Shown: piece after piece, positions 1 to 50,683 of the stretch | How the letters are laid out: the number at the start of each line of letters is the position of its first letter | Position numbering within the stretch: position 1 is the stretch's first letter | NCBI GenBank assembly: GCA_963801675.1 | Contig: CAWDFN010000001.1 | Location: 4,311,069 to 4,375,068, forward strand | DNA: 64,000 nucleotides | Direction of reading: 5' to 3' | Source: an uncultured Planctomycetia bacterium | GTDB lineage: Bacteria > Planctomycetota > Planctomycetia > Pirellulales > PALSA-1355 | Position numbers and translations under genes: made by a program | The notes under the pieces: generated by a model | What the model saw: the letters and a program-made list of their open reading frames with translations, nothing else | What the model was told of the DNA's origin: nothing | The model's database searches: none

Positions 1-279
1 TTCCAATTGAATGCTGTCCAGAATGGCGGCGTTGTAGGCGTCGACGGGCTTCATTTCGGGGTGGAACGGCTGGGCCGCTTCGCCCCCTTCGCTGATCGCG
101 ATCCGGCTGCCCATGCCCGCGCCGAGTTCGTCGTAGACCACCAGGCATTCGCCGGTGGGCGATGCGTCGCCCGACAAATCGGCAAGCGTCAGCGGAATCG
201 CCAGGCGCAGCGACGCCGCGGCAAAGCTCGGGTGAGCACGGCTGAGGGTCACGGTTCCTATGACTTCGGCGATTCGCAT
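1..279 (-). CDS. BMC-P (EutN/CcmL family) microcompartment vertex protein, paralog 1; 3' end leaves the window
   Basis: Own reverse-strand translation from ATG at 277-279: [93 protein letters not shown], which is EutN/CcmL-like. It is absent from the ORF track because no stop codon lies inside the window. Confidence 0.8.
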   Translation of the reverse strand, partial: MRIAEVIGTVTLSRAHPSFAAASLRLAIPLTLADLSGDASPTGECLVVYDELGAGMGSRIAISEGGEAAQPFHPEMKPVDAYNAAILDSIQLE

Positions 280-1000
280 GGTGTTGGTTGTCTTTTGCTC
301 TGTTTATTCAAGTCGTTCGCGCAGGGCGCGGGTACTTGTTGTCGTCCGGCGTGGAACCAGGCGTACATAATTTGTTTCAATTCGAAGAGGCTTTTGGCGA
401 CTGGATCGATTACCAGCAGGTTTGCGGCGACGCTGGTCACGGCGGCAACGACGGTTTGCACATCGTTGCCGAGCGCCGCCCGCACGCCGCGTTGGCGATT
501 GGCCAGGCAGAGTGCCGCGGCGGTTTGCCCGGTGATCAGCAGCCCCATTTGGCCTCCCTTGACGATTGCGTCGCACAGTTCATCGATGACTCCGATCAAT
601 CCCAATTGCGGCAGCCGCTCGACGTGCACGCGATCGCGCGAGAGCACGTCGACCAGCGACGCCGGTTCATAATTGGTTTCCGCCACTGCCGATCACGAGT
701 TGTCGCCTGCCGGTCGATTTCGCGTTGGCCACGGCCGAGGCGATCGAAACCTGATGTTTTCTTGAGCACGTCGCGGGCGGCGGGCGTGAAAATCGCGCCG
801 CGCGGCACCACCAATCGCGTCACTCCGCTCAGCCGATCCTCCAGCTTCCGCCAGACTCACCACCTTGCAGGAGAGCACCAGTTCGGCGCCTGTGCACTGC
901 AAGTCGCCGGTTGTTGCCCGGCGGCAATTTCGGCCAACACTTCGCGCACGACGCGTTCGACGTCGGCCCGCCGCGCAAAACTGGTTCCTCCCTTGGCCAT
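258..1000 (-). CDS. BMC-operon protein with an RpiB/LacA/LacB-like C-terminal half and an N-terminal encapsulation-peptide-like helix; about 4 frameshifts as sequenced
   Basis: Own translation from ATG at 998-1000 gives [32 protein letters not shown]. It continues in other frames (ORFs 693..902, 596..823, 258..686): [20 protein letters not shown] / [29 protein letters not shown] / [24 protein letters not shown] / [14 protein letters not shown]...[48 protein letters not shown]. Frame breaks lie near 905, 848, 757-760 (T-run) and 690. The GxLIxG...GVRAAL block resembles RpiB-family isomerases. Confidence 0.55.
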
Positions 1001-1001
1001 A

Positions 1002-1260
1002 TCAATCCTGGATTCCCAACACGCTCCACCGTACCGGCGTGGTGTCGCTGCCCACCAGCGCCCGAGTGCCCTTGCCGTCGCTGGTCAACATCACGCGCTC
1101 GCCGCGGCCGGCGCCCAAGCGCGTCGATCGCCAGCACCGGCTCGCCGTCGGGCGTGCGGCCGTCGCGCCGTAAGAACTGCACGACCAGCAGCTTCCAGCC
1201 CTGCAGCGACGGATGCTTGACCGTCGACGTCGCGGTGCCGACCACTAGTCCGAGTTGCAT
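1002..1260 (-). CDS. BMC-P (EutN/CcmL family) vertex protein, paralog 2; 1 frameshift as sequenced
   Basis: [49 protein letters not shown] (ORF 829..1275). After dropping one base of the C-run at 1114-1116 it continues [36 protein letters not shown], with the stop at 1002-1004. Confidence 0.8.
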
Positions 1261-1293
1261 GCATTCGTTCATCAAGTCGTGGCCGATTGTCCG

Positions 1294-2743
1294 TTACTCT
1301 TCCCAAAATTCGCAAATCGTCGATCAGCGAGCAGCGGCGCTCGCGGGTGAACGTCAGCGGCGTGGTCACGCCTTCGCCGGTCGGCGTGGCGATCGAGAAC
1401 GACAGGTAGCCTTCGCCCCCCAGGCCCAGCGCCGCCATGCACGGGCCGTTCTTGACGAACAGCGTCGTGTCCATCGCCCGGCCCATCTTGGTCATGTTCC
1501 GCACGTTGTTCGAGTGAATGATGCTCGTGTGCCGGAAGCCGTGCTCGTAGTACTTGGCCTTCGCGATCGCCTCGTCGACGTCGCGGCACGCGGACGAACG
1601 GCACGAAGGGCATCATCTGCTCGACCGGCACGAACGGGTTCGACTCGTCGGTCTCGCCGAAGAGCAGCTCGGTCTCGGCGGGCACGTTCTTGCCGACGGC
1701 CGCGGCCAGCACGGCGGCGTCCTGGCCGATGAAATCCTTGGCGGCCACGTCGTGCTTGTGCGTCGCCTTCGCCGACCGTGGCGATGGCCACCTTCGTCAG
1801 GGCGTCGATCTCGCGGGCGTTGAGCCGCACGGCGCCGGCCCGGTCCATCGCCGCCAGCATCGCGTCGAACACCTCGGCGACGACGAAGACTTCCTTCTCG
1901 GCGATGCACAGCAGGTTGTTGTCGTAGGCGCCGCCCTGGATGATCGCAGCGGGCGGCCCGGTCCGAGGTCGGCCGTTTCATCGACCACGACCGGCGGATT
2001 GCCCGGCCCGGCGACGATCGCCCGCTTGCCGCTGTTGCATGGCCGCCCGGGCCACGGCCGGGCCGCCGGTGACGCAGATCAGCTTGACGCCGCGATGGTC
2101 GAAGATCGCGTCGGCCGATTCGAGCGTCGGCTCGGCGATGACGCAGATCAGATTGTCGATGCCCAGGTCGCGGTAGATCGCCTCGTTGAAGCGGCGCACG
2201 CCCTCGGCCGCCACGCGCTTGCCGCTGGGATGCGGATTGACGACCAGCGTGTTGCCGCCGGCGATCATGCTGACGGCGTTGCCGGTGATCGTCGGCAGCG
2301 AGTGCGTGACCGGCGTGATGGCGCCGATCACGCCGAACGGGGCGTGCTCGATGACCGCCAGGCCGTGATCGCCGCTGAAGACCTCGCTGCGCAGAAACTC
2401 GACGCCGGGCGTGCGCTCGCCGAGCGTCTTGAGCTTTTCGATCTTGTGCGTCCAGCCGGCCGATCTTGGTTTCTTCCATCTCCATCGTGCCCAGCTCGAC
2501 GCGACTGCTCGATCGAGATGCGGCGGATGTGGTCGATGATCCGCTTGCGGTCTTCGATGCGTGCGCTCGCTGAGCTGCTCGAAGGCCTCGGTGGCGGCCG
2601 CCACGGCTTCGTCGACGCAGGTGAAGACGCCGAAGCGGCCGGCGTAGCCGCGGCCGCTGACCGGCGGCGCGGCGGCACCGTGCCCATGCGCGGCCAGCAC
2701 TTGCTTGCACGACGCTGCGAATGAGTTCTTCGGTGACTTGCAT
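1294..2743 (-). CDS. Acylating (CoA-dependent) aldehyde dehydrogenase, PduP/EutE-like BMC core enzyme; at least 8 frameshifts as sequenced
   Basis: Pieces in all three minus frames (ORFs 1613..2743, tail of 1978..4311, 1492..1872, 1272..1748, 1091..1504) concatenate to [20 protein letters not shown]...[20 protein letters not shown]...[40 protein letters not shown]...[15 protein letters not shown]...[30 protein letters not shown] (catalytic Cys context)...[10 protein letters not shown]...[60 protein letters not shown]. The 3' end is uncertain (stop at 1294 or 1272, depending on the frame repair). Confidence 0.8.
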
Positions 2744-2789
2744 GGTGATTCGATATCCCTGGTCGAGTGGTCGAGTGAGTCGTTGTGGT

Positions 2790-3111
2790 TCAGCGTAGTC
2801 TGTCTTCGCGGCTGAAGACGCAGTTGTGGTCGACGTGCACCGTGTCGACGATGCCGATGATGACGGTGTCGACCGGCAGGTTCTTGGTTTCCGGCGTGAG
2901 CCGGGCGCTCGAGCCTTGCGTGATCAGCACGAACTCGCCCTCGCCGGCGCCGACGGTGTCGACGGCCACGAACGTGCGGCCGGTGGTCGACCAGCCGGTC
3001 GCGATCCTGCGGATCGACGCGATACGGCTCGACGACCAGCAGCTTGTGGCCGACCATCGAGTCGACCTTTTGCGTGGCCACGAGCGAGCCGGTGACTTTG
3101 GCGACGAACAT
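2790..3111 (-). CDS. BMC-P (EutN/CcmL family) vertex protein, paralog 3; 1 frameshift as sequenced
   Basis: [31 protein letters not shown] (inside ORF 1978..4311) continues in the frame of ORF 2790..3392: [65 protein letters not shown]. The frame break is near 3010. Confidence 0.8.
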
Positions 3112-3115
3112 GATA

Positions 3116-4311
3116 TTAGCCTTTCGAGAAGTAGTTTGCGCCTGCCGGGCGACGATGAACTCTTCGTTGGTCGGCACGACCCAAATTTGCACGCGGCTGT
3201 TCGGCGGCGCTGATCTTCGCCTCGCCCTTGGCCGTGGCGTTGGCGGCCGGGTCGAGCACGATGCCCAGCTCTTCGAGCCCGGCGGCAGACGGCCGCGCGG
3301 ATGTGGACGCCGTTCTCGCCGATGCCGCCGGTGAAGACGATCGCGTCGGCGCCGCCCAGCTCGACCAGCATCGCGCCCAGGTAGTGCCGCATGTCGGACG
3401 CGAAGACGTCGAGCGCCAGCCGTGCCCGCGCGTTGCCCCGCGGCGGCCGCTTCCTCCAGATCGCGCACGTCGCCGCTGACGCCGCTTAGGCCCAGCAGCC
3501 CGCTGCGCTCGGCCAGGTCGTCGAGCACTTCGTCCAGCGACTTGCCGGTGTGCTTCATGATCACGCGGCAAGGCGAACGGATCGAAGTCGCCCGACGCGG
3601 TTGTTCTGCGGCAAGCCCGACTGCGGGCTCATGCCCATCGCTGGTGGCCACGCTCTGGCCGTCGCGAATGGCGCACAGCGAGCTCGAGCCGCCCAGGTGG
3701 CAGGAGATGATCCGCAGGTCGTTGCGGCCGAGCAGCTCGGCCGTCCGCGTCGGCGATGTAGCGATGGCTGGCGCCGTGAAAGCCCCAGCGCTTGACGTGA
3801 TACTTCTCGGCCCACTCGTACGGAGCCGGCGTAGTAGCGGTTGCGGTCGGGAATCGTGTGATGAAAGCCGGTCTCGAACGCCGCCACCAGCGGAATCTCC
3901 GGCAGCTTTTCGCTCAGCAGCCGCATGGCCGCGATGTAGGGCGGATTGTGGGCCGGCGCGACTTCGCTCATCTCTTCCATCGCCGCCAGCACCTCGGCCG
4001 TGACCCGCTGCACGCCGCTGATACGTCCGCCATGCACCGCCTTGAAGCCGATGGCCGACACTTCGGCGGCGTCCTTCAGGCAGCCGCGTTCGCGGATCGG
4101 TCAGCTGCTCCAGGCACTGGCGCACCGCCACGGCATGATCGGGCACGCGCGCCGTCAACTCGCGCTGCGCGCCGCCGATCTCGACGACGCAACGGCTTTC
4201 CGGCGAGCCGATCCGCTCGACGCCGCCGCGCGCAAGCTGCCGCTCGTCGGCCATGTCGAACAGCCGGTACTTGAAGCTCGTCGAGCCGAGGTTGGCGACG
4301 AGGATCTTCAT
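3116..4311 (-). CDS. ackA: Acetate kinase; at least 7 frameshifts as sequenced
   Basis: [20 protein letters not shown]...; [76 protein letters not shown]; [22 protein letters not shown]; [22 protein letters not shown]; [13 protein letters not shown]. The pieces are spread over ORFs 1978..4311, 3561..4061, 3116..3571 and 2790..3392. Confidence 0.8.
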
Positions 4312-4344
4312 CGATCTTCGCGGCGTTGGTCCTTGCGTGTCCGT

Positions 4345-4630
4345 CTAGCGAAGCGACTTTACGACGAGATACGCCGCGACCAGACCTTCGGCGGGCCGCG
4401 GAATGACGTGGCTGGCGACCAGTTCGCCGACTCTGGGTGGCGGCCGCGGCGCCGGCTTCGACGGCGGCCCGCACGCTGCCGACGTCGCCGCGGACGACGG
4501 TGGTCACGTAGGCGCCGCCGATGGAGATGCGCTTGACGATCTCGACGTTGGCCGCCTTGGCCATGGCGTCGGTGGCTTCGACCAGCGCGATCAAGCCCTT
4601 GGTTTCAATCAGTCCGATTGCCGTATTCAT
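4345..4630 (-). CDS. BMC-H hexameric shell protein (PduA/EutM-type BMC domain); 1 frameshift as sequenced
   Basis: [66 protein letters not shown], then after a one-base repair near 4432 [28 protein letters not shown]. The stop is at 4345-4347. Confidence 0.85.
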
Positions 4631-4977
4631 GCGAGTTGTCCTTGTTGACGTGTTGTGTTGACGGTGTTTGGAGTGTGAGTGACGTTGACTTTTTGCGCGG
4701 ACTCGGGCAGGACGATGCCCAGGTCGTCGTGCGGACGCGGAATGACTTGCACGCTGACGACTTCGCCGATGCGGCCGGCCGCGGCGGCGCCGGCATCGGT
4801 GGCGGCTTTCACCGCGGCCACGTCGCCGGTGACGAACGCGGTCACCAGACCGCTGCCGACTTTGTCCCAGCCGAGGAACTGCACGTTGGCCGCTTTCATC
4901 ATCGCGTCGCTGGCTTCGACCAGGGCGACGAAGCCCTTGGTCTCGATCATGCCGAGCGCTTCCACTGTCTTTGCCAT
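4627..4977 (-). CDS. BMC-H hexameric shell protein with a C-terminal tail; intact
   Basis: [86 protein letters not shown]... (tail of ORF 4627..5316). Its stop overlaps the start of the next BMC-H gene. Confidence 0.9.
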
Positions 4978-5039
4978 CTGAGGGTCTCCGGAGAAAAAAG
5001 GAAAAGGTAGTTGTTTCAACCGCTTGTTAATTGGGGGTG

Positions 5040-5723
5040 TTATCGCTGCTTGAACAGTTCGACCTTCGTCGCGTGATCCAGGTCGGCCGCGTTGCCTTCG
5101 TCGGTGTCGATGTGGACTTCGAGCTTGCTGGTCTCGTCGGCCCGCACCAGCAGGTCTTCGAACACCGGCGTGCAGGTGCCCTCGATCCGCAGGTTCATGC
5201 GGTCGCCGTTCTTGACGCCGTAGCGGGCCGCGTGCTCGAGGCTCATGTGGACGTGCCGCTCGGCGCGGATCACGCCCTCGTTCAACTCGACGACGCCGCG
5301 CGGGCCCGACCAGCACGCAGCCGGGCGTGCCGGCGATCTTGCCGCTGGCGCGGACCGGCAGCGTCGATGCCCAGCGAAATGCCGTCGGTGAACGCCAGCT
5401 CGACCTGGCTGTGCGGCCGCGTCGGGCCGAGCACGCGGACCGTGGGCAGCATGCCGGCGCCGCGGGCCGACGACCATCACCGTTTCCTCGGCCGCGAAGA
5501 ATCCATCCTGATACAGCGGCTTTTGAACGGTCAGCTTGTGGCCCGGGCCGAACAGCGTCTCGACGTGCTCGTCGGTCAGGTGCAGATGCCGGGCCGAGAT
5601 GCTGACGACCAGGTCGCTGCCGCCGCGTTTGCTGCTGCCCGCTTGCGCGGTGAGCGTGCCGAGCACGACTTCGCGCACGATTTGTTCGACGGTCGAGCGA
5701 TCGATGGCGGCGGACATGCTCAT
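5040..5723 (-). CDS. pduL: PduL-type phosphate acyltransferase (phosphotransacylase); two compensating frameshifts in the middle
   Basis: ORF 5040..5723 reads N-terminally [26 protein letters not shown]...[42 protein letters not shown] and C-terminally [63 protein letters not shown]. This is the duplicated PduL RHxH repeat. The central ~60 codons (about 5300-5470) read as Arg/Pro-rich nonsense. Confidence 0.8.
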
Positions 5724-6518
5724 GGTCGTTGCTCGGGTGCTAGGCGTTGTTGGTCGATTTCGGCGACGTGCAACTCAAGTCCTGCGGCGGCGGCTTTGTC
5801 GCGCCATTCGGCGGAAATTTCGGCGATCGACGACCAGGTGGTGCGACGTCGCCGAGCGGGCACAGATGGGCCAGGCTCTGGCGGCCGAACTTCGTGCTGT
5901 CGGCCACGACGATCACTTCGTCGGCGGCGTGCATCATGGCCCGTTCGGTTTCGACCAGCAGCAGATTGCTGTTGAAGAAGCCCCGCTCGTTGATGCCCGA
6001 CGACGCTGAGGATCGTGCGCCGCACGTTGAGCCGCGCGAGCATTTCGTTGGCATACGGCCCCAGCGCGACGCCGGTCCGCGGATAGACGTAGCCGCCGAC
6101 CAGCACCAGGTCGTTGTTGGCGTTCGAGGCGAACAGGTTGGCCACCGGCAGCGAGTTGGTGACGATTTGCAGCGGGCGGCCGACCAGCAGCCGGGCGACT
6201 TCGTAGGTCGTGCTGCCGCCGTCGAGCAGCACGGTGTCGCCGTCCTCGATCAGCTTGACGGCTTCCTGCGGCAATGGCTTTCTTCTTGTCCCACTGGGCC
6301 GGCTGGCGTTCGTCGAAGTGGGGCAGCTTGGGCGAGGGGCCGGTGTAGAAGACGCCGCCGTGGGTTCGCTTAGCCGTGCCAACGTCTTCCAGGTAATCCA
6401 GATCGCGGCGGATGGTGGACTCGGAAACTTTCAATTGATCGGCCAGTTCGGGCAGCGACGCAAACCCTTTGGATCGCACCATTTCGAGCAACTGATTCCG
6501 GCGTTCGTCGACGAGCAA
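5720..6518 (-). CDS. DeoR-family transcriptional regulator at the head of the BMC operon; 3-4 frameshifts as sequenced
   Basis: [55 protein letters not shown] (HTH); [33 protein letters not shown]...[34 protein letters not shown]; [46 protein letters not shown]. The pieces come from ORFs 5934..6518, 5720..6382 and 5740..6054. Confidence 0.8.
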
Positions 6519-6634: not shown

Positions 6635-6749
6635 CGTGATAATTTCTTGGTTTCATTGTGATAAAGAACGGTCGAATAAGGGCTTAAGAGTGGTGGGTTT
6701 GCCGGTCGTCGCTGGCGATTCGCCGGACGAAGCGCAAGAATCAAGGGTC

Positions 6750-7256
6750 ATGGCCACGGTTCTACAACTGACGCGCGAACTCTTGGAGCGGCCGGTGGCG
6801 ACGCCGATCGCAGGTGTTCGACTGCGTCATTTCGGCGGGCCGGACGACGTCGAAGTGTGGCTCGAGTTGCGCCGCCGCGCGTTTTCGCGGCAGAAGCTGG
6901 GCGTGGGCGATTGGGATGCGGCGGATTTCGAACGCGAGTTTCTCCGCAAAAGTTGGTGGCGGCCCGAGGCCATGTGGTTTGCCGAAGCGCAGCGACTGCC
7001 GCTGGCGCCGCATGCGCCCGTGGGCACGGTGACGTTGGCCCGGCGGGGCGATTCGTCGGATGCCAAGCCGGTCGTGCATTGGCTGGCCGTGCTGGGCAGC
7101 GATCGACGGCGCGGAGTGGGGCGGCTGCTGATGGCGACGCTGGAAACGGCCGTGTGGGACGCCGGCGGCCGGCAAGTGTGGCTGGAGACGCACATTGCGT
7201 GGGAGGAAGCGGCTCGGCTGTACGAGTCGCTGGGTTACCGGCCCGTGCGCGAGTGA
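6750..7256 (+). CDS. GNAT-family N-acetyltransferase
   Basis: MATVLQLTRELLERPVATPIAGVRLRHFGGPDDVEVWLELRRRAF...VGTVTLARRG...HWLAVLGSDRRRGVGRLLMATLETAVWDAGGRQVWLETHIAWEEAARLYESLGYRPV. The RRRGVGRLL block fits the acetyl-CoA-binding motif. The start was chosen at ATG 6750 inside ORF 6636..7256. Confidence 0.7.
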   Translation: MATVLQLTRELLERPVATPIAGVRLRHFGGPDDVEVWLELRRRAFSRQKLGVGDWDAADFEREFLRKSWWRPEAMWFAEAQRLPLAPHAPVGTVTLARRGDSSDAKPVVHWLAVLGSDRRRGVGRLLMATLETAVWDAGGRQVWLETHIAWEEAARLYESLGYRPVRE

Positions 7257-7324
7257 GCGCCACACAGCGATCGTCCCAGTCCGTCACAACATTATTCTAG
7301 TGCAAACGACAAGCGGCTAGGACT

Positions 7325-7449
7325 GGGTGGCCCAGACAACTTGTTGTCTGGGTCCCGAAGGGACAAGAGGATCTCGAGAGGTGTGCGCCCCCCCCTCAAA
7401 CACTTCTTATTGCTTCGCAACACCGACAACAAGTTGTCGGTGCCACCCC
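7325..7449 (+). repeat. Copy A of a ~125-nt nested-palindrome intergenic element
   Basis: GGGTGGC-CCAGACAACTTGTTGTCTGG-GTC-CCGAAGGGACAAGAGG-(35-nt core containing a C8 run)-CTTATTGCTTCG-CAACA-CCGACAACAAGTTGTCGG-T-GCCACCCC. It lies between the convergent GNAT and purN genes. Confidence 0.9.
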
Positions 7450-7458
7450 GTTTGGGTT

Positions 7459-8100
7459 TTAACGAATCACGACGCGCCGGCCTTCGACCGTCACCTGGCC
7501 GCTGGCGAGCCGGCGCAGGGCCTCGGGGTAGGCTTCGCATTCGGCGGCGAAGACGCGGGCGGCGAGCGTGTCGGGCGTGTCGTCGTCGAGCACGGGCACG
7601 ATTTTCTGCAAAATGATCGGGCCGTGGTCGTACTCGTTGTCGACAAAGTGGACTGTGCAGCCGCTCACCTTGGCGCCATATTCCAACACGGCTTCGTGCA
7701 CGTGATGGCCGTAGAAACCCTTGCCGCAGAAGGCAGGAATCAAGGCGGGATGGATGTTGAGCACGCGATTTTCGAAATCGGGCGGAATCGGCACGTAGGT
7801 CAGGAACCCGCCCATCACGACCCATGGAGCGTCGGTCGAGCGGCAGGCAGCAAAAATTTCGTCGCTGTAGGCCTGGTCGGTGCTGAACTTCGAGCGGTCG
7901 ACGACTTGCGTGCGAATGCCGGCCTCGGCGGCGATTTGCAGGCCGCGGGCCTGGGGGTTGCTGGAGATGACCAGCGCAATCTGGGCGTCGAGCTGGCCGG
8001 CGGCAATCTTTTCGAGCAGGTTCTTCAGCGTCGTGCCGCCGCCGGAAATCAGCACGACCAGGCGCAGGGCGGATTCGTGTTGACTCGACGTCTTGCTCAC
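7459..8100 (-). CDS. purN: Phosphoribosylglycinamide formyltransferase
   Basis: Intact ORF with LVVLISGGGTTLKNLL and NIHPALIPAFCGKGFYGHHVHEAVLEYGAKVSGCTVHFVDNEYDHGPII. Its start overlaps the ileS stop by 4 nt. Confidence 0.9.
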   Translation of the reverse strand: MSKTSSQHESALRLVVLISGGGTTLKNLLEKIAAGQLDAQIALVISSNPQARGLQIAAEAGIRTQVVDRSKFSTDQAYSDEIFAACRSTDAPWVVMGGFLTYVPIPPDFENRVLNIHPALIPAFCGKGFYGHHVHEAVLEYGAKVSGCTVHFVDNEYDHGPIILQKIVPVLDDDTPDTLAARVFAAECEAYPEALRRLASGQVTVEGRRVVIR

Positions 8101-36423: not shown

Positions 36424-37628
36424 AGATCACGGCGCTGGAGACGATTCTCGATCCCGAACGGCCCTTGTTGATGTGGGTTCGCGTGCATACCGACGCGGGG
36501 CTCGTCGGGCTCGGCGAAAGTTTTCAATCGCCCGACGCGATTGCGCGTCGTGCACGGCACGCTGGCCAAGGTGCTGCTCGGAGCGGACCCGACGCGCATC
36601 GAGCTGCTGTGGCATCACATGTTCAAGGTGGTGCACTACGCCGGGTATGCCGGCGCCGAGATGCGGGCGATCAGCGCGATCGACATTGCGCTGTGGGACC
36701 TGTTGGGTCAACTGACCGAGCGGCCCCTCTACGATCTGCTGGGCGGAGCCTGCCGCGACCGGATTCCGCTGTACAACACGTGCGCCAGCTTTGCGCCGTA
36801 CAACGACCACGAATTGTTTCATGATGACCCGGCCCGGCTGCGCGCGAGCTGTTGGCCTCGGGCGTGCGGGCGATGAAGATCTGGCCATTCGACGATCTGG
36901 CCCGGCGGACGCTGGGGCAGAACATCAGCCCGGCGGACTTGGAGTATGGTGTGTCGCGATTTCGTGCGATCCGCGAGGCGGTCGGCGACGAGATCGAGAT
37001 CGCGCTCGAAGGGCACTGCCAGTGGAACTTGCCCAGCGCGATCCGCATCGCCCAGGCGGTCGAGCCTTACCGGCCGATGTGGCTGGAAGAGTTGATGCTG
37101 CCCGACGATCCGCAAGCCACGCGTCAATTGCGCGCCTCGACGCGCACGCCTCTGGTCAGCAGCGAGCGGCTGATGACGCGCTGGGGCTATCGCCCGGTGA
37201 TCGAGACCCACGCGGCGGACATCGTGATGTTTGACATTGATTGGGCCGGCGGCCTGACGGAAGCCCGCAAGATCGCGGCGCTGGCCGAGAGCCACCAGTT
37301 GCCGGTTGCTCCGCACAATCCGGGCGGACCGGTGAGCAACGTCGTCACGGCCCATTTTTGCGCAAGCGTTTACAACTTGTTCATCATGGAGAGCGTGCGT
37401 GCGTTTTATCTCACCTGGTTCGGCGACGCGCTGACGCACAACCTGGTGGCCGTCGACGGCCATTTTCCGCTTCCAAAGGGACCGGGATTGGGCACCCACC
37501 TGAGCCCGCAGTTTTTGGCCCGCGAGGATCTGGTCCGCGAGACCTCGAACGAAGAACAAGGCCCGCTGTCCGGCTATGCTGTCGGCAATCCGTACCGCGC
37601 GGGGAACCCTTGGCAGCGGAAGGCGTAG
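36411..37628 (+). CDS. Enolase-superfamily (mandelate racemase/muconate-lactonizing family) sugar-acid dehydratase-like enzyme; 2 frameshifts as sequenced
   Basis: MESLKITALETILDPERPLLMWVRVHTDAGLVGLGE; AISAIDIALWDLLGQLTERPLYDLLGG; MKIWPFD; EIALEGHCQWN; PMWLEELMLPDD; DIVMFDIDWAGGLTEARKIAALAESHQLPVAPHNPGGP. Breaks lie near 36540 and 36845. The start overlaps the upstream dehydrogenase by 13 nt. Confidence 0.8.
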
Positions 37629-37703
37629 GAGTGAGTTCGGCAATAACTACTGCACTCTCGCTGGCCAACATTATTCGCATGCTTGCGACGAGGGGCTAGA
37701 ATT

Positions 37704-37827
37704 GGGTGGCCCAGACAACCTGCCGTCTGGGTCCCGAAGGGACAAGAGGGTTTGGCGAGGTGCGCGGCCGCCCTCGATTGCCTCTTATTGCTTCGCAACA
37801 CCGACAACAAGTTGTCGGTGCCACCCC
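37704..37827 (+). repeat. Copy B of the ~125-nt nested-palindrome element
   Basis: GGGTGGC-CCAGACAACCTGCCGTCTGG-GTC-CCGAAGGGACAAGAGG-gtttggCGAGGtgcgcggccgcCCTCGattg-CCTCTTATTGCTTCG-CAACA-CCGACAACAAGTTGTCGG-T-GCCACCCC. It lies between the dehydratase-like gene and the PQQ-like gene. Confidence 0.9.
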
Positions 37828-37944
37828 AGAACGCGACTGCAAGCATTCGGATAATGTTGTTGTGCGCTGGGTTAGTTTGAGGATACTCCGCCAAGTACAA
37901 TAGCATCGCCTGGACGAAATACGAGCTGGATGAGGGAAAGTCCG

Positions 37945-39186
37945 ATGCGGCGTTTGATCCTGTTTGCGGCGACTCTCGTGTCGGCGGCATCGCCGGCGGC
38001 TGCTGGGGAGAATTGGCCGCAGTTTCGTGGCCCGCAGGGGGACGGAATGTCGGTCGAGACCGGCTTGCCGTCGACTTGGAGCGAATCGCAACACGTAACT
38101 TGGAAGACGGCCATTCACGGCAAGGGCTGGAGCTCGCCGGTCATCTGGAACACTCAGATCTGGATCACCACCGCCACCGAGGATGGCAAGCAGCTGTTCG
38201 CCGTGTGTATCGACCGCGAGACGGGACGGATCGTGCATGACGCGCTGGTGTTCGAGATCGCCGAGCCGCAGTTCTGCCATGCGCTCAACAGCTATGCCAC
38301 GCCGACGCCGGTGGTCGAGGAGGGTCGGGTGTACGTGCACTTCGGCACGCACGGCACGGCCTGTCTCGACACGCAGTCGGGAAAGACGCTGTGGACGCGT
38401 CAGGATTTTCCGTGCAATCACTTTCGCGGCCCAGCCTCTTCGCCGATCGTGTACGGAAACCTGCTGATCGTGGCTTACGACGGGTTCGACTTGCAGTACG
38501 TGGTGGCGCTCGACAAGCGGACTGGAAAAACGGTGTGGCGCCGCGATCGCAACATTGATTATGGCACCGCCGACGGCGACGCGAAAAAGGCGTACGGCAC
38601 GGCCAAGGTGATCGAAGTCGACGGCCAGCCGCAACTGGTCTATCCCAGCGCCGGGGCGACGATCGCCTACGTGCCCGAAACCGGCGCGGAGATTTGGCGA
38701 GTCAACCACGGCGGCATGAACGCGGCGGCGACGGCGCTATTTGGGCACGGACGACTGTACCTCAACACGGCCGCCGGCGGCTTCAAACTGTTTGCCATGC
38801 GCGTGGGAGGAAAGGGGGACGTGACCAACACCAGCGTCGAGTGGAAATGCAGCCAGGGGGTGCCCACGCGAAGTTCGCAATTGCTGGTGGGCGATTGGAT
38901 CTTCATGGTCAGCGATGCCGGCATTGCCTCTTGTCTCGACGCCAAGACCGGCAAGACGATCTGGCACGAGCGGCTCGACGGCGAGTTTTCGGCGTCGCCT
39001 CTGTACGCCGACGGAAAGGTTTATTATTTCAATCAGACTGGCGCAGCTTTCGTCGTCGCGCCCCAGCCCGAGTTCAAGCTGCTGGCGACCAACACCCTCA
39101 ACGCGGGGTTCATGGCCTCGCCGGCGGTTTATGAAAAGGCGCTGTATTTGCGCACGAAGACGGATCTGTATCGGATCGAGGATTGA
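37945..39186 (+). CDS. Secreted PQQ-like (BamB-like) beta-propeller repeat protein
   Basis: Intact ORF. Signal peptide MRRLILFAATLVSAASPAAA. It has ENWPQFRGPQGDGMS, WKTAIHGKGWSSPVIW and repeated G(K/R)T(I/L/V)W blades (SGKTLWTR, TGKTVWRR, TGAEIWRV, TGKTIWHE). Confidence 0.75.
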   Translation: MRRLILFAATLVSAASPAAAGENWPQFRGPQGDGMSVETGLPSTWSESQHVTWKTAIHGKGWSSPVIWNTQIWITTATEDGKQLFAVCIDRETGRIVHDALVFEIAEPQFCHALNSYATPTPVVEEGRVYVHFGTHGTACLDTQSGKTLWTRQDFPCNHFRGPASSPIVYGNLLIVAYDGFDLQYVVALDKRTGKTVWRRDRNIDYGTADGDAKKAYGTAKVIEVDGQPQLVYPSAGATIAYVPETGAEIWRVNHGGMNAAATALFGHGRLYLNTAAGGFKLFAMRVGGKGDVTNTSVEWKCSQGVPTRSSQLLVGDWIFMVSDAGIASCLDAKTGKTIWHERLDGEFSASPLYADGKVYYFNQTGAAFVVAPQPEFKLLATNTLNAGFMASPAVYEKALYLRTKTDLYRIED

Positions 39187-39226: not shown

Positions 39227-40357
39227 CTACTTGTGCACCCAGCGTACTCGGTGATTGTTTGTGTCGCCGATAATCACTCCGCCGTCCGGCGCGATGCAAA
39301 TGCCGTGGGGGCGGTCGACCTTCGCTTCGAGCGCCGCAGTTTTCTCGCCCGCATAGCCGCGCGCCGCGGGTCCGCCGCCGGCGATCGTATCCACGCGATT
39401 GGCGCGGGTGTCGATGCGGCGAATCGCCTGGTTTTCGGAATCGACGACGTACACCAGGCCCTCGAGCGTCGCGGCGATGCCCTTGGGTCCGTTGAAAGTC
39501 GCGTCGGCGGGCGGTCCGCCGTCGCCGGAGAAGCCCGACTTGCCGGTGCCGGCCACGTGATGGATGACGCCGGAGTCGAGATCGAGCCGCCAAACGCTGT
39601 TACCCTCGCGCAGCGCGATCCACAAGTTTCGGCCCGTGATGGCCAGCGCCCGAGGGCCGAGGATGGGCTGGCCTTGCGATTGTGTGCCGTCGCGCGGCAG
39701 CGTTCGCTCGCCGTTGCCGGCGATCGAGGTAATCGTGCCGTTTTTGACGTCGATGCGGCGAACACGATGGTTGCCGATGTCGGCGACGTAAAGAAAGCCG
39801 CGGTCGTCGAGCGCAATGCTGTGCGGCTGGCGGAACTGTGCGGCTCTCGCAGGTCCATCGTCGCCATCGTATCCCGCCTGGGGCGTGCCGGCCACCGTCG
39901 AGATCGTGCCGTCGCGGGCGTCGACCCGGCGGACGAGATGGTTCTGCATCTCGACGAAATACATGTTCCGTTGAGCGTCGAAGCGGACTTCGTAGGGCTC
40001 GTTGAGCTGGGCTTTGTCGGCCGGTCCGCCGTCGCCCGAGTAACCCTTGGTTCCGTTGCCGGCGACGCTGGTGAGTTGTCCGCTCGAGCGGTCGAGTCGC
40101 AACACGCGGTGCTGACCGATGTTGGTGATGTAGAGAGCGCCGCTAGGGCCCAGCTCGACGCCAAACGGCTGGTCGACGGGGGCTTGCACGGCCGCCGCGC
40201 CGCCGTCGGGAAAGTCGCCGCCGCGCCCGTTGCCGGCGACGGTTTCGATAATCAGTCCGTCGGCGCCTGCTCGGGCCGCGATTGGAAAAATGCACGCGAC
40301 ACCAGTCAGAAGTCTCAGCAGGCAACTCGATGTTCGCGGCAAAGTCATGGCTTCCAC
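39227..40357 (-). CDS. Secreted NHL-repeat beta-propeller protein
   Basis: Intact ORF. Repeats include GYSGDGGPADKAQLNEPYEVRFD, GYDGDDGPARAAQFRQPHSIALD, FSGDGGPPADATFNGPKGIA and NHRVRRID. The start may be the internal ATG at 40348. Confidence 0.8.
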   Translation of the reverse strand: MEAMTLPRTSSCLLRLLTGVACIFPIAARAGADGLIIETVAGNGRGGDFPDGGAAAVQAPVDQPFGVELGPSGALYITNIGQHRVLRLDRSSGQLTSVAGNGTKGYSGDGGPADKAQLNEPYEVRFDAQRNMYFVEMQNHLVRRVDARDGTISTVAGTPQAGYDGDDGPARAAQFRQPHSIALDDRGFLYVADIGNHRVRRIDVKNGTITSIAGNGERTLPRDGTQSQGQPILGPRALAITGRNLWIALREGNSVWRLDLDSGVIHHVAGTGKSGFSGDGGPPADATFNGPKGIAATLEGLVYVVDSENQAIRRIDTRANRVDTIAGGGPAARGYAGEKTAALEAKVDRPHGICIAPDGGVIIGDTNNHRVRWVHK

Positions 40358-42753: not shown

Positions 42754-43858
42754 TCAGGCCTCGGCGACTTCGACGAACACCTTGAGCGCCGCATTGTCGT
42801 CGACCAGGGCGCGCATCATTTGAGCGTAATTGTCGAGCCCGCGAATCGGCGTCGTGAGAATACGCTGGATTACGCCGGGGTACATCATTTCGCCCAGCGC
42901 CAGGTCCTTGATGCCCATTTCGAAGTGTTCGCGGTTGGCGTTGACCGAACCCAAGAGCAGCTTGTTGCCCAGCACCCAGTCGAGGTTCACCTTGTCGGAG
43001 GGGACTTCGACGTGCTGGCGGCCGCCTGTGACGCTGGTCCAAACGAGCACGCCATTGTGTCCCAGCACCTGCATCGATTCGAAGGCCACCGCACTGCTGC
43101 CGGTGGCGTCGATGATCAGGTCGGCCTTGCCGACGTTCCGTGCCAGCTCGGCCTGCGAGGTGCGCGCGGTGCTGATGTAATGGGCGCCCATGGCTTCGAC
43201 CAGTTCGGCCTTGAGCTGCGGCGGCTCGCTACGGGCCAGCGTGTAGACCTCGAGTCCGCGCAGCCGCAGGGCCAGCGTGCTCAGCAGGCCGATCTGTCCG
43301 GCGCCCATGACGTAAGCGATTTTCGGCCGCCACACGTGCAACCGGCGCTGCACCTCGTAGGCTTGCTGCACGGCCTTGGTGGCGCAGCTCATGGGCTCAA
43401 CCAGCACGTGCAGGTGGTCCAGCCCGCGGGGCATCTTGACGATGAACTCGGCATCGTCGACGTAATGCTCGGTGAGGAAGCCGTGCAGCAGGTTGATGCC
43501 TCGTTCGTAGTAGGTTTCTTCGCTGGTCATGTCCGAGGTGCCGATCTGGTCGTAGATCGAGCCGCCGGGGCGGCGCACCGTTGCGGTGACGATAGTCGCC
43601 CGGCTTGACGTGCTTGACGTTTTCGCCGACGGCTTCCACGATGCCAAACGACTCGTGCCCGAGAACCAGAAAATCGCAGCCCGGCGGGGCGGCGCCGTAC
43701 TTGGCTTCGTTGATTTCCCGATCGGTGGCGTCGACGCCGATTTTCAACACCCGCACCAAAACGCCGCGCCCGCCGGCGACGTCGCGCACGCCGGGCTTCG
43801 GCAGATCGGCCAGGTGCACGCTGTTGGGTTTGCCCGGAGTGACGGCGACGGCTTTCAT
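42754..43858 (-). CDS. Zinc-type medium-chain dehydrogenase, glucose 1-dehydrogenase-like; 1 frameshift near 43590
   Basis: [24 protein letters not shown]...[15 protein letters not shown]...[26 protein letters not shown] joins [21 protein letters not shown]...[10 protein letters not shown]...VFVEVAEA (ORFs 43397..44020 and 42754..43647). The substrate call is tentative. Confidence 0.7.
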
Positions 43859-43984: not shown

Positions 43985-44109
43985 GGGTTGGCACCGACAA
44001 CTCGTCGTCGTTCTTGCCAAGCAACAAGAGGAGTTTCAGCGAGGCTCTCGCAGCTCATCCAAGCCTCTTGTCCCTTCGGGACCCAGACAACAAGTTGTCT
44101 GGGCCACCC
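43985..44109 (-). repeat. Copy C of the ~125-nt nested-palindrome element (reverse orientation)
   Basis: The reverse complement reads GGGTGGC-CCAGACAACTTGTTGTCTGG-GTC-CCGAAGGGACAAGAGG-cttggatgagctGCGAGagcCTCGCtgaaact-CCTCTTGTTGCTTGG-CAAGAACGACGACGAGTTGTCGG-T-GCCAACC. It sits in the divergent region between the dehydrogenase and the membrane-protein gene. Confidence 0.9.
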
Positions 44110-44252: not shown

Positions 44253-44642
44253 ATGCCGAATATTTCGCTGTTCTTTGGGGCCGTTTTGACTGCCATCGGG
44301 CTGTTCGGGTATTTTGGATCCGCGTCCGACGACCCGAGCCCCACCGCGTTGATTCCGGCGGCCGTTGGCGCCATCTTGATCGTTTGCGGGCTCATTGCCC
44401 GCAAGCCTAGCCTACGGATGCATGCGATGCACGCGGCGGTGTTGGTGGCGTTGATTGGTGCTATTGGGGCTCTGGTAAAGGCGTTTCCTAATATCGGGCG
44501 ATTGGCCTCGGACGATCCGACATACAGGCGCCCGGTGGCGATGCAGTTTTTGATGGCGGTCACGTGCATCGTCTACGTCGTGCTGTGCGTACGTTCGTTC
44601 ATCGCGGCGCGACGGGCTCGCACACAAGCCGCGGAACATTGA
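44253..44642 (+). CDS. Small integral membrane protein (about 4 TM helices), unknown function
   Basis: MPNISLFFGAVLTAIGLFGYFGSASDDPSPTALIPAAVGAILIVCGLIARKPSLRMHAMHAAVLVALIGAIGALV...FLMAVTCIVYVVLCVRSFIAARR. A GGAGG sits 7 nt upstream of the ATG. Confidence 0.6.
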   Translation: MPNISLFFGAVLTAIGLFGYFGSASDDPSPTALIPAAVGAILIVCGLIARKPSLRMHAMHAAVLVALIGAIGALVKAFPNIGRLASDDPTYRRPVAMQFLMAVTCIVYVVLCVRSFIAARRARTQAAEH

Positions 44643-44677
44643 CGAACCAACTGACGACGCACAACGTCGAGGAATCC

Positions 44678-45667
44678 GTGAGCCACTTTCTCCTCAGGAA
44701 GATTACGTCTCGCCGTTGGCTGGCCCGGGGGATCATTGCGCTGGCCGTCGCGGCGGCATTCTCGATCGACTGCCCATTGGCTTGCGCCGAGGACGGCGAA
44801 TGGACTGAGCAGACGTTCGTCTACAAGAGCGTCGGGCCGACCAAGATCGAGGCGGACGTCCGGCGACGAAATGGCACGCAAGCGCGGCCGGCGGTGGTTT
44901 GGATTCACGGCGGCGCGTTGATCATGGGCAATCGCAAAGGCGTGCCGCGGAACATCGTCGAGCTGTGCAAGGCGAACAACTATGTGTTGATCTCGATCGA
45001 CTACCGCCTGGCGCCCGAGGTAAAACTGCCGGCGATCATCGACGATCTCAAGGATGCCTTTCACTGGATCGGCGCCGAGGGTGTGACACAGTTGCACCTC
45101 GATACCGAGAAGATTCTGGTCAGCGGCGGATCGGCCGGCGGGTATCTGACGATGATGAGCGGCATTTGCGCCGAGCCGAAGCCGAAGGCGCTGTTGGCCT
45201 ACTGGGGATACGGCGACGTCGACGGGCCATGGTATGCCGAGCCGGCTTACCAAAACGTGAAGCGCGTGAGCAAGGAAGACGCCTTCAATGCCGTGGGTGG
45301 CGAAGTGCAAACCAACGGTGGCGGCCAACGCGGAACGTATTACATGTATCTGCGGCAGAACGGCCTGTGGCCGAAGGAAGTCACCGGCTTCGATCCCAAG
45401 ACCCAGCGCGCGAAGTTGGACCCCTATTGCCCGGTGCGCAACATCACGCCCAAGTATCCGCCGCTGCTGATGGTGCATGGCACGGCCGACGAAGACGTGC
45501 CCTACCAGGAATCGGTCGACATGGCCGAGGCCTGCAAGAAGCAGGGTGTTTGGCACGAGCTGATCACCGTTGAAGGGGGCGGCCACGGGCTGGGCGGCGG
45601 CGACAAGAAGGTGATCGCCGAGGCGCAAGCGCGGGCGATGGAGTTCATCAGCAACCAGCTCGACTGA
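44678..45667 (+). CDS. Secreted alpha/beta-hydrolase (esterase/lipase-like)
   Basis: VVWIHGGALIMGN (HGG oxyanion motif), VSGGSAGGYL (GxSxG) and MVHGTADEDVP. The GTG start at 44678 is tentative. Confidence 0.75.
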   Translation: MSHFLLRKITSRRWLARGIIALAVAAAFSIDCPLACAEDGEWTEQTFVYKSVGPTKIEADVRRRNGTQARPAVVWIHGGALIMGNRKGVPRNIVELCKANNYVLISIDYRLAPEVKLPAIIDDLKDAFHWIGAEGVTQLHLDTEKILVSGGSAGGYLTMMSGICAEPKPKALLAYWGYGDVDGPWYAEPAYQNVKRVSKEDAFNAVGGEVQTNGGGQRGTYYMYLRQNGLWPKEVTGFDPKTQRAKLDPYCPVRNITPKYPPLLMVHGTADEDVPYQESVDMAEACKKQGVWHELITVEGGGHGLGGGDKKVIAEAQARAMEFISNQLD

Positions 45668-49538: not shown

Positions 49539-49750
49539 CGATCGACCTCCCGGGCAAGTAGGGGTGCATTGCCGCCAGCCGCCGACGTGCGATTGTGTCG
49601 ATAATCGTGGGAAAAGGCAAGTTTTTTTAAGCCGCGCCTGAACTTCGGATGGCGAGATTCGCCACGTTGACCCTAACGTGCGGGGTAGGGTAAGCTCAAA
49701 TCCCGGCGACACGTGGAGCATCAAGCCGGCACTCAATGAGGGAATCCGTG

Positions 49751-50377
49751 ATGATTCGATCTGCGACGTTGATTTGCGTTTGGCTCGTGATGGCCGCACA
49801 GGCGATGGCCGGCAAGTACAACTCGGTTTTGAACATCGGCGACGCGGCGCCGGCTTGGAGCAACCTGGAGGTGGTCGACGGCAAAAGGCACGCGCTCGCC
49901 GACCTCGCCGATAAGGACGTGGTCGTGGTGGTGTTCACGTGCAACAGTTGCCCCGTGGCCACCGACTATGAGGACCGGATCATCGAGTTTGCGAAGAAAC
50001 ACGCCCAGCCCACCAGCAAGGTGGCCCTGGTGGCGATCAACGTGAACAAAGTTGCCGACGACCTGTTGCCGAAGATGAAGGAGCGGGCCGAATCGAAGGG
50101 TTTTGATTTTCCCTATCTCTACGACGATACGCAAAAGATCGGCAAGGATTTCGGCGCCAATTTCACGCCGGAAGTTTTCGTGCTCAACAAGCAGCGGCAG
50201 GTGGTCTACATGGGCGGAATGGACGACAACAGCAACCCGCTGGAAGTGAAGGCCCACTACCTGGAGCCGGCGGTCGCGGCGGCACTGGCCGGCAAGGCCC
50301 CCAGCAAGGCCGAGGCGCCTGCGATCGGCTGCCGCATTCGCTACGAGCGCGAGCGGCGCAAGCCTGCCGGGAAGTAG
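49751..50377 (+). CDS. Secreted thioredoxin-fold redoxin (CxxC), paralog of the N-terminal domain of the 51472 gene
   Basis: MIRSATLICVWLVMAAQAMA; VVVVFTCNSCPVATDY (CNSC); FDFPYLYDDTQKIGKDFGANFTPEVFVLNKQRQVVYMGGMDDN; GCRIRY. Confidence 0.75.
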   Translation: MIRSATLICVWLVMAAQAMAGKYNSVLNIGDAAPAWSNLEVVDGKRHALADLADKDVVVVVFTCNSCPVATDYEDRIIEFAKKHAQPTSKVALVAINVNKVADDLLPKMKERAESKGFDFPYLYDDTQKIGKDFGANFTPEVFVLNKQRQVVYMGGMDDNSNPLEVKAHYLEPAVAAALAGKAPSKAEAPAIGCRIRYERERRKPAGK

Positions 50378-50389
50378 AGGAGCCGGTTT

Positions 50390-50514
50390 GGGGTAGCACC
50401 GACAACTGGTTGTCGGTGTTGCAACGCAACAAGAGGCGCTTTCGAGTGGCGATTGACACCGACCGATTCCTCTTGTCCCTTTGTGACCGATACAACGAGT
50501 TGTTTGGGCCACCC
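50390..50514 (-). repeat. Copy D of the ~125-nt nested-palindrome element (reverse orientation, most diverged)
   Basis: The reverse complement reads GGGTGGC-CCAAACAACTCGTTGTATCGG-TCA-CAAAGGGACAAGAGG-aatcggtcggtgtcaatcgccactcgaaagcg-CCTCTTGTTGCGTTG-CAACA-CCGACAACCAGTTGTCGG-T-GCTACCCC. It lies between the redoxin gene and the tetR promoter. Confidence 0.85.
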
Positions 50515-50594
50515 GACCCCAGGCCATTGCCAGCACCCAAGGCCGGAAGACCCCCGGTCCGGCCGCCCGACCCCGCGAAATACCGCAATATACC

Positions 50595-50623
50595 TTGACA
50601 GGGGGTGTCGTCATGAGTATAAA
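50595..50623 (+). promoter_or_regulatory. Near-consensus sigma-70 promoter of the TetR gene (TTGACA-17 nt-TATAAA)
   Basis: TTGACA at 50595-50600, a 17-nt spacer, then TATAAA at 50618-50623. GGAGGG lies 7 nt before the GTG start at 50684. Confidence 0.45.
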
Positions 50624-50683
50624 CAGAATGAGAATTCTAGTTCGATTCACACGCGTTTGACTCAATTCGGGCGGAGGGTTGGC

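Follow-up and report, generated by a model that had tools for sequence, protein, structure and literature searches.

Four repeat units lie between genes in the window

The window, by which we mean the whole 64-kb stretch of DNA analysed here (GC content 63.4%; its nearest named proteins belong to Pirellulales MAGs), contains four copies of a repeat of about 125 nt. The first-pass annotation had given their positions and strands, and both were borne out by alignment and by repeat finding, which recovered the four units independently (families D1/D2, inverted pairs I1-I9). The copies are listed below with their arms, the scores of these arms under a single-arm covariance model and the neighbouring genes; the terms REP unit and REPIN are taken up in the later sections.

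REPIN copy A, 7325-7449, + strand: REP unit 7325-7370 (+), 32-nt core 7371-7402, inverted REP unit 7403-7448 (-); arm scores 75.6 and 67.0 bits; between the convergent 3' ends of a GNAT gene (6636-7256, +) and a formyltransferase gene (7459-8100, -)
REPIN copy B, 37704-37827, + strand: REP unit 37704-37749 (+), 31-nt core, inverted REP unit 37781-37826 (-); arm scores 67.1 and 70.7 bits; between an enolase-like gene (36852-37628, +) and a PQQ-propeller gene (37930-39186, +), in tandem
REPIN copy C, 43985-44109, - strand: REP unit 44064-44109 (-), core, inverted REP unit 43986-44031 (+), the latter being the most degraded arm at 56.3 bits; between divergent genes for a Zn-ADH (42754-43647, -) and an alpha/beta-hydrolase (44564-45667, +)
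REPIN copy D, 50390-50514, - strand: REP unit 50469-50514 (-), core, inverted REP unit 50391-50436 (+, head GGGTAGC); arm scores 61.3 and 64.7 bits; between a redoxin gene (49736-50377, +) and a TetR gene ending at 51361 (+), in tandem

The covariance model (R1) was built from one arm, i.e. a single module, and was run on the window with filters off. It returned exactly 8 arms, forming 4 doublets, with scores of 56-76 bits and E values from 3e-15 to 8e-11, and the next-best match (21.9 bits) overlapped one of the copies. The invariant 13-mer AAGGGACAAGAGG gave 5 matches at <=2 mismatches against 0.86 expected, and the terminal 16-mer gave 9 against 1.03; for each of them, 0/100 shuffles contained as many. 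Between copies the arms are 88-90% identical and the core 59%, confirming the initial description of near-identical arms round a divergent core. All 8 units in the 64 kb are intergenic, with GC3-supported and Pfam-supported genes on both sides, and the gene contexts are convergent (A), tandem (B and D) and divergent (C). Hence the repeat does lie between genes in every case and keeps no consistent orientation to them, as had been proposed.

It should be pointed out that the TetR ORF beside copy D was listed from 50453, with its HTH at residues 103-146. The true TetR start should therefore lie well downstream of 50453, and the ATG near 50615 is a candidate for it.

Each unit is a pair of inverted 46-nt modules

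Each unit consists of two 46-nt modules arranged in inverted orientation, tails inward, round a spacer of 31-32 nt, and all 8 modules of the window are paired in this manner. The module begins with a GGGT[G/A]GC head, continues with hairpin 1 (an 8-bp stem of variable sequence) and hairpin 2 (a 5-bp stem with a G-N-A loop), and ends with an AAGAGG tail. In the window, hairpin 1 reads CCAGACAA-CTTG-TTGTCTGG in the left arm and ACCGACAA-CTTG-TTGTCGGT in the right arm, while hairpin 2 reads GTCCC-GAA-GGGAC and GTTGC-GAA-GCAA[C/T], respectively. The left and right arms of one doublet are different variants, 70-78% identical, and the arms of copy A (7322-7386 and 7387-7451, pair I4) are 72% complementary, forming an imperfect palindrome. 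The inverted repeat of about 17 nt that had been noticed at the termini is thus present, but it is not limited to them, as the whole 46-nt arms are inverted copies.

Further copies were collected by an exact-pattern scan, which gave 8 loci in species-representative genomes and 45 in metagenomes; about 35 of these loci carry the full module and the others are chance matches. Among the rejected matches are L003, L004, L005, L007 and L008 in the genomes and L012, L023, L028, L030, L033, L034, L036, L045, L049 and L050 in the metagenomes, with neither head nor hairpin. A blastn search of the plasmid collection gave no match to the element, and two matches to viral contigs were due to chance, the model finding no REP unit in them. 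The longer cores of L016, L041 and L052 contain a T-arm-like sequence, for which a tRNA was ruled out by ARAGORN.

The combination of a left arm of the CCAGACAAC/GTCCC type with a right arm of the ACCGACAAC/GTTGC type is kept in 4/4 window copies. The doublets of loci L014 and L002 keep both window arm types almost unchanged, the right hairpin 1 of L002 being GCCGACAAC, and about 20 further tails-inward doublets were found in other loci. With both arm types kept across copies, the doublet itself appears to be the unit that is copied. Its spacer, 31-32 nt in the window, varies elsewhere between roughly 20 and 175 nt.

The foot of the window modules is GTGG in 7 arms and GTAG in the right arm of copy D. 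Of 56 distinct units, 45 have GTGG and 10 have GTAG, as set by position 5 of the head, and the AAGAGG tail is present in 43/56. These modules therefore carry the GT[AG]G 5' of a hairpin foot by which REPs are defined. The window units likewise have the composition of REPINs, namely an inverted REP pair with a short spacer in which the doublet is what is copied.

Structural constraint acts on the single arm

Covariation, a check that the first-pass annotation had suggested, supports both local hairpins through compensatory changes. In a set of 18 hand-picked modules of equal length, 95.3% of cells were paired and double changes occurred in 8/13 pairs; 0/500 shuffles matched the observed percentage paired or the covariation score, and shifted registers gave 29-56% paired. 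When 56 distinct modules were aligned by the model, 98% were paired with double changes in 9/13 pairs, figures that favour pairing since this alignment was fitted to the structure. Over about 60 copies from other genomes, strong compensatory covariation was observed in both hairpins, with more than 20 stem variants for hairpin 1 and at least 7 for hairpin 2 (GTCCC/GGGAC, GTCGC/GCGAC, GTTGC/GCAAC, GCGGC/GCCGC, GGGCC/GGCCC and GTGCC/GGCAC, as well as GTGAC/GTCAC in L060). Because the metagenome copies were retrieved by a pattern made of hairpin 2 and the tail, conservation of these parts in the metagenome copies is partly a matter of ascertainment; the RAYT-flank loci described below were not selected by this pattern, and A[A/C/G]GAGG is still found in them together with the head and the two hairpins. 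The module is therefore a short imperfect palindrome under structural constraint, as expected of a REP, with two local hairpins per 46-nt unit.

A DNA fold of the lone arm reproduces both hairpins, and both strands of the units fold far better than shuffles (z -3.4 to -7.5). In the window copies the local hairpins within the arms are intact in 23-26/26 pairs, whereas arm-to-arm pairing at the same positions reaches 16-19/26. As the two arms differ in sequence, the local hairpins hold and arm-to-arm pairing is only partial, so the conserved structural unit is the single arm. The cloverleaf-like junction proposed at first, like a long hairpin, was thus rejected as the conserved structure, and the minimum-energy folds alternate by copy between a long hairpin and a multi-helix form. 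The short core stems that had been read in copies B and C do appear in minimum-energy folds, though nothing beyond the folds supports them.

Several arms are degraded, with stem damage that is uncompensated. These are the left arm of copy B, in which the upper stem of hairpin 1 is degraded, the left arm of copy D, with mismatches within hairpin 1, and the right arm of copy C.

The same module brackets RAYT genes in other Planctomycetota

In locus L006, a MAG of Isosphaeraceae, two identical modules in inverted orientation bracket an ORF of 170-220 aa, and each of them matches the window left arm at 44/46 nt. The NCBIfam scan, which covered this one RAYT gene, gave 90.7 bits for NF047646 (REP-associated tyrosine transposase; cut-off 80) and 27.4 bits for the IS200 model, below its cut-off of 55. 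The ORF also matches Pfam Y1_Tnp (1.2e-8), and its sole PDB match is 4ER8, the TnpA-REP of E. coli, to which it aligns at the HUH, WQ and NPV motifs. Two homologue searches, one with the L006 RAYT and one with P0117, gave 676 and 1141 matches. These include proteins from Tautonia and Calycomorphotria that NCBI already names REP-associated tyrosine transposase, along with homologues from Planctopirus and from Thermoguttaceae and Phycisphaerae MAGs.

Besides L006, seven RAYT loci were taken by protein identity, independently of the DNA motif. The eight loci belong to the following sources:

Isosphaeraceae
Tautonia (two loci)
ENA MAG
GCA_029259915
Thermoguttaceae
Planctopirus ephydatiae
Phycisphaerae

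In 8/8 of them the module stands on both sides of the HUH/Y1 gene of about 170 aa, inverted and tails inward. The same REPs thus flank the RAYT gene in these relatives, which is the hallmark of a REPIN-RAYT system. In the six loci that were read closely, the upstream module ends 34-41 nt ahead of the ATG; in the Planctopirus locus L059 this distance is 160 nt. The downstream module lies 0-30 nt past the RAYT stop, again with L059 as the exception, where the unit nearest the stop is on the + strand and the inverted partner follows about 220 nt past the stop, a looser bracket than any of the seven others show. In the Thermoguttaceae locus hairpin 1 is much longer, with head, hairpin 2 and tail kept. 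The encoded RAYTs carry DHVH, WQ and YMHxNP motifs. Some RAYTs of the clade are without the catalytic tyrosine, which is replaced by Ser, Asp or Thr in P0001, P0055, P0042, P0076 and P0105.

As judged by sequence comparison, the arms of the window units are RAYT-flanking sequences of other Planctomycetota, and the doublet would be the two ends of a RAYT unit from which the gene has been deleted. The start of the core of copy C, CTTGGATGAG, resembles the CTTGAGG found after the 5' REP upstream of RAYT genes. In locus L055 a C-terminal RAYT fragment lies directly beside a module, and this arrangement looks like a deletion intermediate.

A search for RAYT or tnpA genes, which had been recommended at the outset, was run on the 64-kb window and none was found to be encoded there; tblastn matched just the translated REP tail. 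No RAYT of the source genome was found among the best 120 of 676 and the best 120 of 1141 homologues, and as these lists hold only the best 120 of each search, this absence is weak evidence. The first-pass annotation was right that no transposase lies adjacent to any copy in the window. It is, however, no argument against REPs, because REPINs are dispersed and mobilised in trans.

Copies C and D are absent from syntenic relatives

Orthologous sites, another comparison put forward in the first-pass annotation, suggest that the copies may come and go. The DUF1501 protein of the window has orthologues at 87-89% identity on the contigs L061 and L062. Both contigs share synteny with the window (nucleotide identity 77-82%), and the model scan found no REP unit in the 42.8 kb of these two contigs. 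The spacer between the Zn-ADH and the small membrane protein in L061 is about 270 nt shorter than that of the window and copy C is absent from it, while copy D is absent from the redoxin-TetR spacer of L062. At about 78% identity, the intergenic alignments with L061 and L062 are too diverged for exact insertion boundaries. Copy B is located at a break of synteny. The L002 doublet lies between the two genes of a DUF1501/DUF1553-type pair, the homologous pair of the window is without one, and the two pairs may be paralogous.

Target-site duplications, which were also to be looked for, were found at none of the four copies, whose flanks share no direct repeat. This absence fits Y1/HUH transposition.

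Identity of the units and alternative explanations

Because the same module brackets the RAYT gene in relatives, the window units can be read as REPINs, i.e. a RAYT unit minus its gene, and we consider it very probable that they are non-autonomous doublets, mobilised when a RAYT acts in trans on their DNA folded in the single-stranded state. The mechanism envisaged follows what is known of TnpA-REP in E. coli and of IS200/IS605 elements. While the DNA is single-stranded, as on the lagging-strand template, a RAYT encoded elsewhere in the genome would bind the folded REP hairpins together with the GT[AG]G foot, and would cut and rejoin the DNA beside them. The doublet would thereby be moved or copied to other intergenic sites, leaving no target-site duplication. 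We infer both a cognate RAYT in the source genome that would mobilise the units in trans and a single-stranded DNA chemistry for the window units. Of the three readings first offered, the mobile REP/BIME-like one has thus stood, given GT[AG]G modules that flank RAYTs in relatives, whereas those of a small RNA and of a protein-binding module gained no specific support, although either function may exist as a secondary role.

That the units are a structured small RNA family or cis-regulatory RNA elements acting on or with the neighbouring genes is very improbable. Folding of both strands beyond shuffles and covariation of the hairpins would agree with it, but covariation is equally expected of single-stranded DNA hairpins read by an HUH enzyme. 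Rfam 15 gave 0 matches in the whole window at the gathering threshold and 0 at E<=1 around copy B. The copies occur in every orientation and gene context, orthologous sites of relatives at about 80% identity are without them, and individual copies carry uncompensated stem damage. Moreover, an RNA gene family leaves the transposase bracket in 8/8 loci unexplained. Another alternative is a MITE that goes back to an insertion sequence of DDE type and is moved by cut-and-paste via terminal inverted repeats. The size of about 125 nt, the terminal inverted repeats and the intergenic, non-coding nature all suit such a MITE; yet target-site duplications flank no copy, the full-length relatives encode a Y1/HUH enzyme instead of a DDE transposase, and the supposed terminal inverted repeats are hairpins in subterminal position, which have a GT[AG]G foot and whose structure is under selection. 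We regard this origin as scarcely credible.

Several arms being degraded, some of the window copies are probably fossil, and together with the absence of a source RAYT from the best-120 lists this makes fossil status a real possibility. It is nevertheless unlikely that all of them are immobile relics whose RAYT is lost. In that reading any retention would be owed to a host function of the kind suggested for REP/BIME in E. coli, such as protecting mRNA 3' ends, attenuating transcription or binding gyrase or nucleoid proteins, and the low probability applies to relic state and function jointly. This reading draws on the RAYT missing from the best 120 homologues of each list, on arms just 88-90% identical with several damaged stems, on the position of copy A between convergent 3' ends, a classic REP site, and on the clade RAYTs without a catalytic tyrosine. 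Against it, lists that comprise the best 120 of 676 and 1141 are weak evidence, and the units have no T-tract and hence are not intrinsic terminators: no terminator-like site or promoter was found in 7200-7600 around copy A, and the sequence after copies B, C and D is not T-rich. The units may still serve the host, for instance by protecting mRNA 3' ends or binding proteins, but no terminator tail supports this. In any case the REPIN origin is unaffected, as the relic reading touches present activity and function only.

Relation to known repeat systems

REPIN-RAYT systems are known from Pseudomonas and Enterobacteria (Bertels & Rainey 2011, PMC3116915; PMC3337134), and the REP/BIME elements with TnpA-REP from E. 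coli (PMC3479197). Mobilisation of REPINs in trans has been proposed for Pseudomonas and shown in part biochemically for the E. coli TnpA-REP (PMC3116915, PMC3337134, PMC3479197). The canonical REP tag is GT[AG]G at the hairpin foot, which TnpA-REP of E. coli reads base-specifically and requires for cleavage (PMC6006769, PMC3479197). The window units share with these systems an extragenic pair of inverted REPs, here dispersed over the 64 kb, whose spacer is short and less conserved. They also share an imperfect hairpin with the GT[AG]G foot on its 5' side, the lack of target-site duplication and, here in relatives, a single HUH/Y1 RAYT gene flanked by the same REPs. Their heterotypic arms are like the Y and Z REPs of E. 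coli BIMEs. In contrast to the single palindrome of 20-40 nt in REPIN-RAYT/BIME systems, the module here is 46 nt long, forms two hairpins and ends in an AAGAGG tail that hardly varies, and the planctomycete RAYT is usually bracketed by one REP per side, as in an IS, so that the window REPIN would be a simple internal-deletion derivative of this IS-like RAYT unit.

Proteobacterial REP sequences differ from genus to genus. Here, head and tail are kept across Isosphaerales, Pirellulales, Planctomycetales and Phycisphaerae.

The first-pass annotation knew of no described element class for the phylum. This did not hold, as REP and RAYT sequences have been reported in Planctomycetes (PMC3733652, PMC6006769) and NCBI already names such proteins REP-associated tyrosine transposases. 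No paper pairing RAYT with Planctomycetota was found in the searchable literature text. Di Nocera et al. 2013 (PMC3733652) deal with TIRtrons/TIRYTs and GTAG REP families, and their analysis included the Planctomycetes R. baltica, P. brasiliensis and P. limnophilus. For this group they reported, already in 2013, REP families as well as units in which a tyrosine-transposase gene has inverted flanks that are long or double-palindromic. As portrayed there, TIRtrons resemble our loci in that a tyrosine-transposase gene stands between long inverted repeats, some of them 'double palindromic', and that the repeats are also dispersed in the genome as dimers. The outer motif of the window units is GGGGTGGC (GGGTGAC in L002), and that of some TIRtrons is of GGGGWSAS type (PMC3733652); GGGGTGGC departs from it at position 7, with G rather than A, and GT[AG]G fits better. 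The exact family of the window may already be among those listed there.

With IS200/IS605 elements the units have in common the Y1 HUH enzyme and a single-stranded DNA chemistry (here by analogy), the lack of duplications, hairpins in subterminal position whose foot carries a 4-nt guide, and the occurrence of short, gene-less derivatives made of the ends only. They differ from IS200/IS605 in that the L006 protein scores under the NCBIfam IS200 cut-off and over that for RAYT, and in that their ends are inverted copies of one module rather than distinct left and right ends. The ERIC/IRU sequences of enterobacteria are intergenic imperfect palindromes of about 127 bp. Size, imperfect palindrome and intergenic site are therefore alike, with no relation in sequence; to our knowledge ERIC is not linked to any RAYT, whereas the window elements are, through their relatives.

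A survey of 2018 assigned GT[AG]G REPs to several TnpA-REP subclasses and found the class-3 RAYT pattern principally in Planctomycetes, Acidobacteria and Proteobacteria (PMC6006769). The motifs of the RAYTs examined here follow the class-2 (TnpA-REP) pattern, not that of class 3.

Significance of the planctomycete REPINs

The window units belong to REP/REPIN, a known class of elements, and represent neither a new kind nor a new mechanism. What appears distinctive in the sequences compared is the two-hairpin module of 46 nt, the near-constant head and tail across the phylum and the IS-like RAYT bracket. A conspicuous repeat in a Pirellulales-like genome is thereby explained as an ordinary class of bacterial mobile DNA. 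For annotation, the units should be masked as REP/REPIN, and no ORFs or RNAs should be called across them. The REPIN/RAYT field gains a lineage outside Proteobacteria and Cyanobacteria, with useful traits such as a two-hairpin REP, conserved single-stranded ends, an IS-like RAYT unit and coexisting gene-less derivatives of several sizes. It is thus well suited to studies of what a RAYT recognises in a REP and of the rise and decay of REPIN populations.

The REP head and tail are nearly constant from Phycisphaerae to Planctomycetia. We put forward, tentatively and as a possibility that is on the whole doubtful, that Planctomycetota carry one ancient, co-evolving REP-RAYT pair with a bipartite REP, whose REPINs would be internal-deletion derivatives of the IS-like RAYT unit. 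The RAYT fragment beside a REP in L055 and the doublets of differing spacer length would then be surviving intermediates. If true, this would provide a natural series from an IS to a domesticated RAYT with its REPIN population, and the extra hairpin and tail would point to determinants of recognition or cleavage unseen in the E. coli system.

Outer repeats

Outside the doublet, copy B is enclosed by a further inverted repeat:

Outer inverted repeat round copy B, left arm, 37666-37686, + strand: CAACATTATTCGCATGCTTGC
Outer inverted repeat round copy B, right arm, 37839-37859, - strand

Copy A is preceded by a left flank related to this outer repeat, starting at 7287, and a homologous outer repeat encloses the L002 doublet, its arms starting at 2694 and 2850.

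Variant RAYT genes and REP modules

In Tautonia sp. JC769 (locus L055), a short fragment of a RAYT (REP-associated tyrosine transposase) gene and a REP module adjoin each other at the following positions:

L055 1412-1498: RAYT C-terminal fragment, 29 aa, 76% identical to the RAYT protein of the Isosphaeraceae MAG (locus L006)
L055 1504-1549: REP module directly adjoining this fragment

This arrangement resembles a transitional stage from the complete RAYT unit to a doublet that has lost the gene. In two genomes, the annotated RAYT ORF runs through the 3' REP module (L006 6619-7281, minus strand, and L055 3001-3786), giving lengths of 220 aa and 261 aa, respectively, compared with 170 aa. Thus, the REP sequence is translated here as a C-terminal extension (GRLLSLRDPDNKLSGPP).

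The catalytic tyrosine itself is not invariant, as its position is occupied by Ser, Asp or Thr in five of the approximately 50 RAYTs of the clade (P0001, P0055, P0042, P0076 and P0105). Two of these proteins depart from the family motif YMHxNP as follows:

L006 6619-7281 (-): RAYT P0001, SMYLNP instead of YMHxNP
L054 3001-3513: RAYT P0055, from a Tautonia genome, SMHLNP instead of YMHxNP

Despite the altered tyrosine motif, the P0001 gene still carries two identical REP modules on its flanks. The RAYTs lacking the catalytic tyrosine may be inactive or domesticated. As the neighbours of the RAYT unit are unrelated between the two Tautonia species (L054 and L055), the unit has no fixed chromosomal position within this genus.

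Outer repeats and longer doublets

REPIN copy B is enclosed by an additional inverted repeat, with which it forms a nested palindrome of about 195 nt:

37666-37686 (+): left arm of the outer inverted repeat (CAACATTATTCGCATGCTTGC)
37839-37859 (-): right arm (complement of CAACATTATTCGCATGCTTGC)

The doublet of locus L002 also lies inside a homologous outer repeat (arms starting at 2694 and 2850) in a gene context different from that of copy B. At copy A, the outer repeat is limited to its left half, from window position 7287. In these few instances (copy B, L002 and the half at copy A), the outer repeat and the doublet may constitute a composite mobile unit, or the outer repeat may be a hairpin serving as a preferred target.

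Further doublet families have the head, hairpin 2 and tail in common, while their cores are longer and conserved across contigs:

Cores of ~95 nt: L015, L017, L018, L021, L031, L044, L048, L051
Cores of ~65-70 nt: L016, L029, L041, L052

One of these longer cores contains a T-arm-like CCAGGTCGAATCCCCC, and ARAGORN detected no tRNA in it.

Other features of the window

The left end of the window (1-5858) is syntenic with a bacterial-microcompartment operon of the related locus L062, the genes of which are:

L062: BMC shell, EutN, PTAC, acetate kinase, aldehyde dehydrogenase, aldolase

Internal repeats at 4380-4955, spaced by 338-339 nt, correspond to adjacent paralogous BMC shell genes. Direct repeats (families D5, D8 and D17) at 39485-40241, with spacings of 171, 339 and 510 nt, lie within a long ORF adjoining the PQQ-propeller gene and probably reflect repeats within the encoded protein.

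Upstream of the TetR gene, the window (~50590-50645, outside REPIN copy D) and L062 (~7460-7510, reverse complement) have in common a conserved stretch with TTGACAGG and a palindrome-like AGAAT[G/A]AGAATTCTA. This stretch is likely a promoter/operator.
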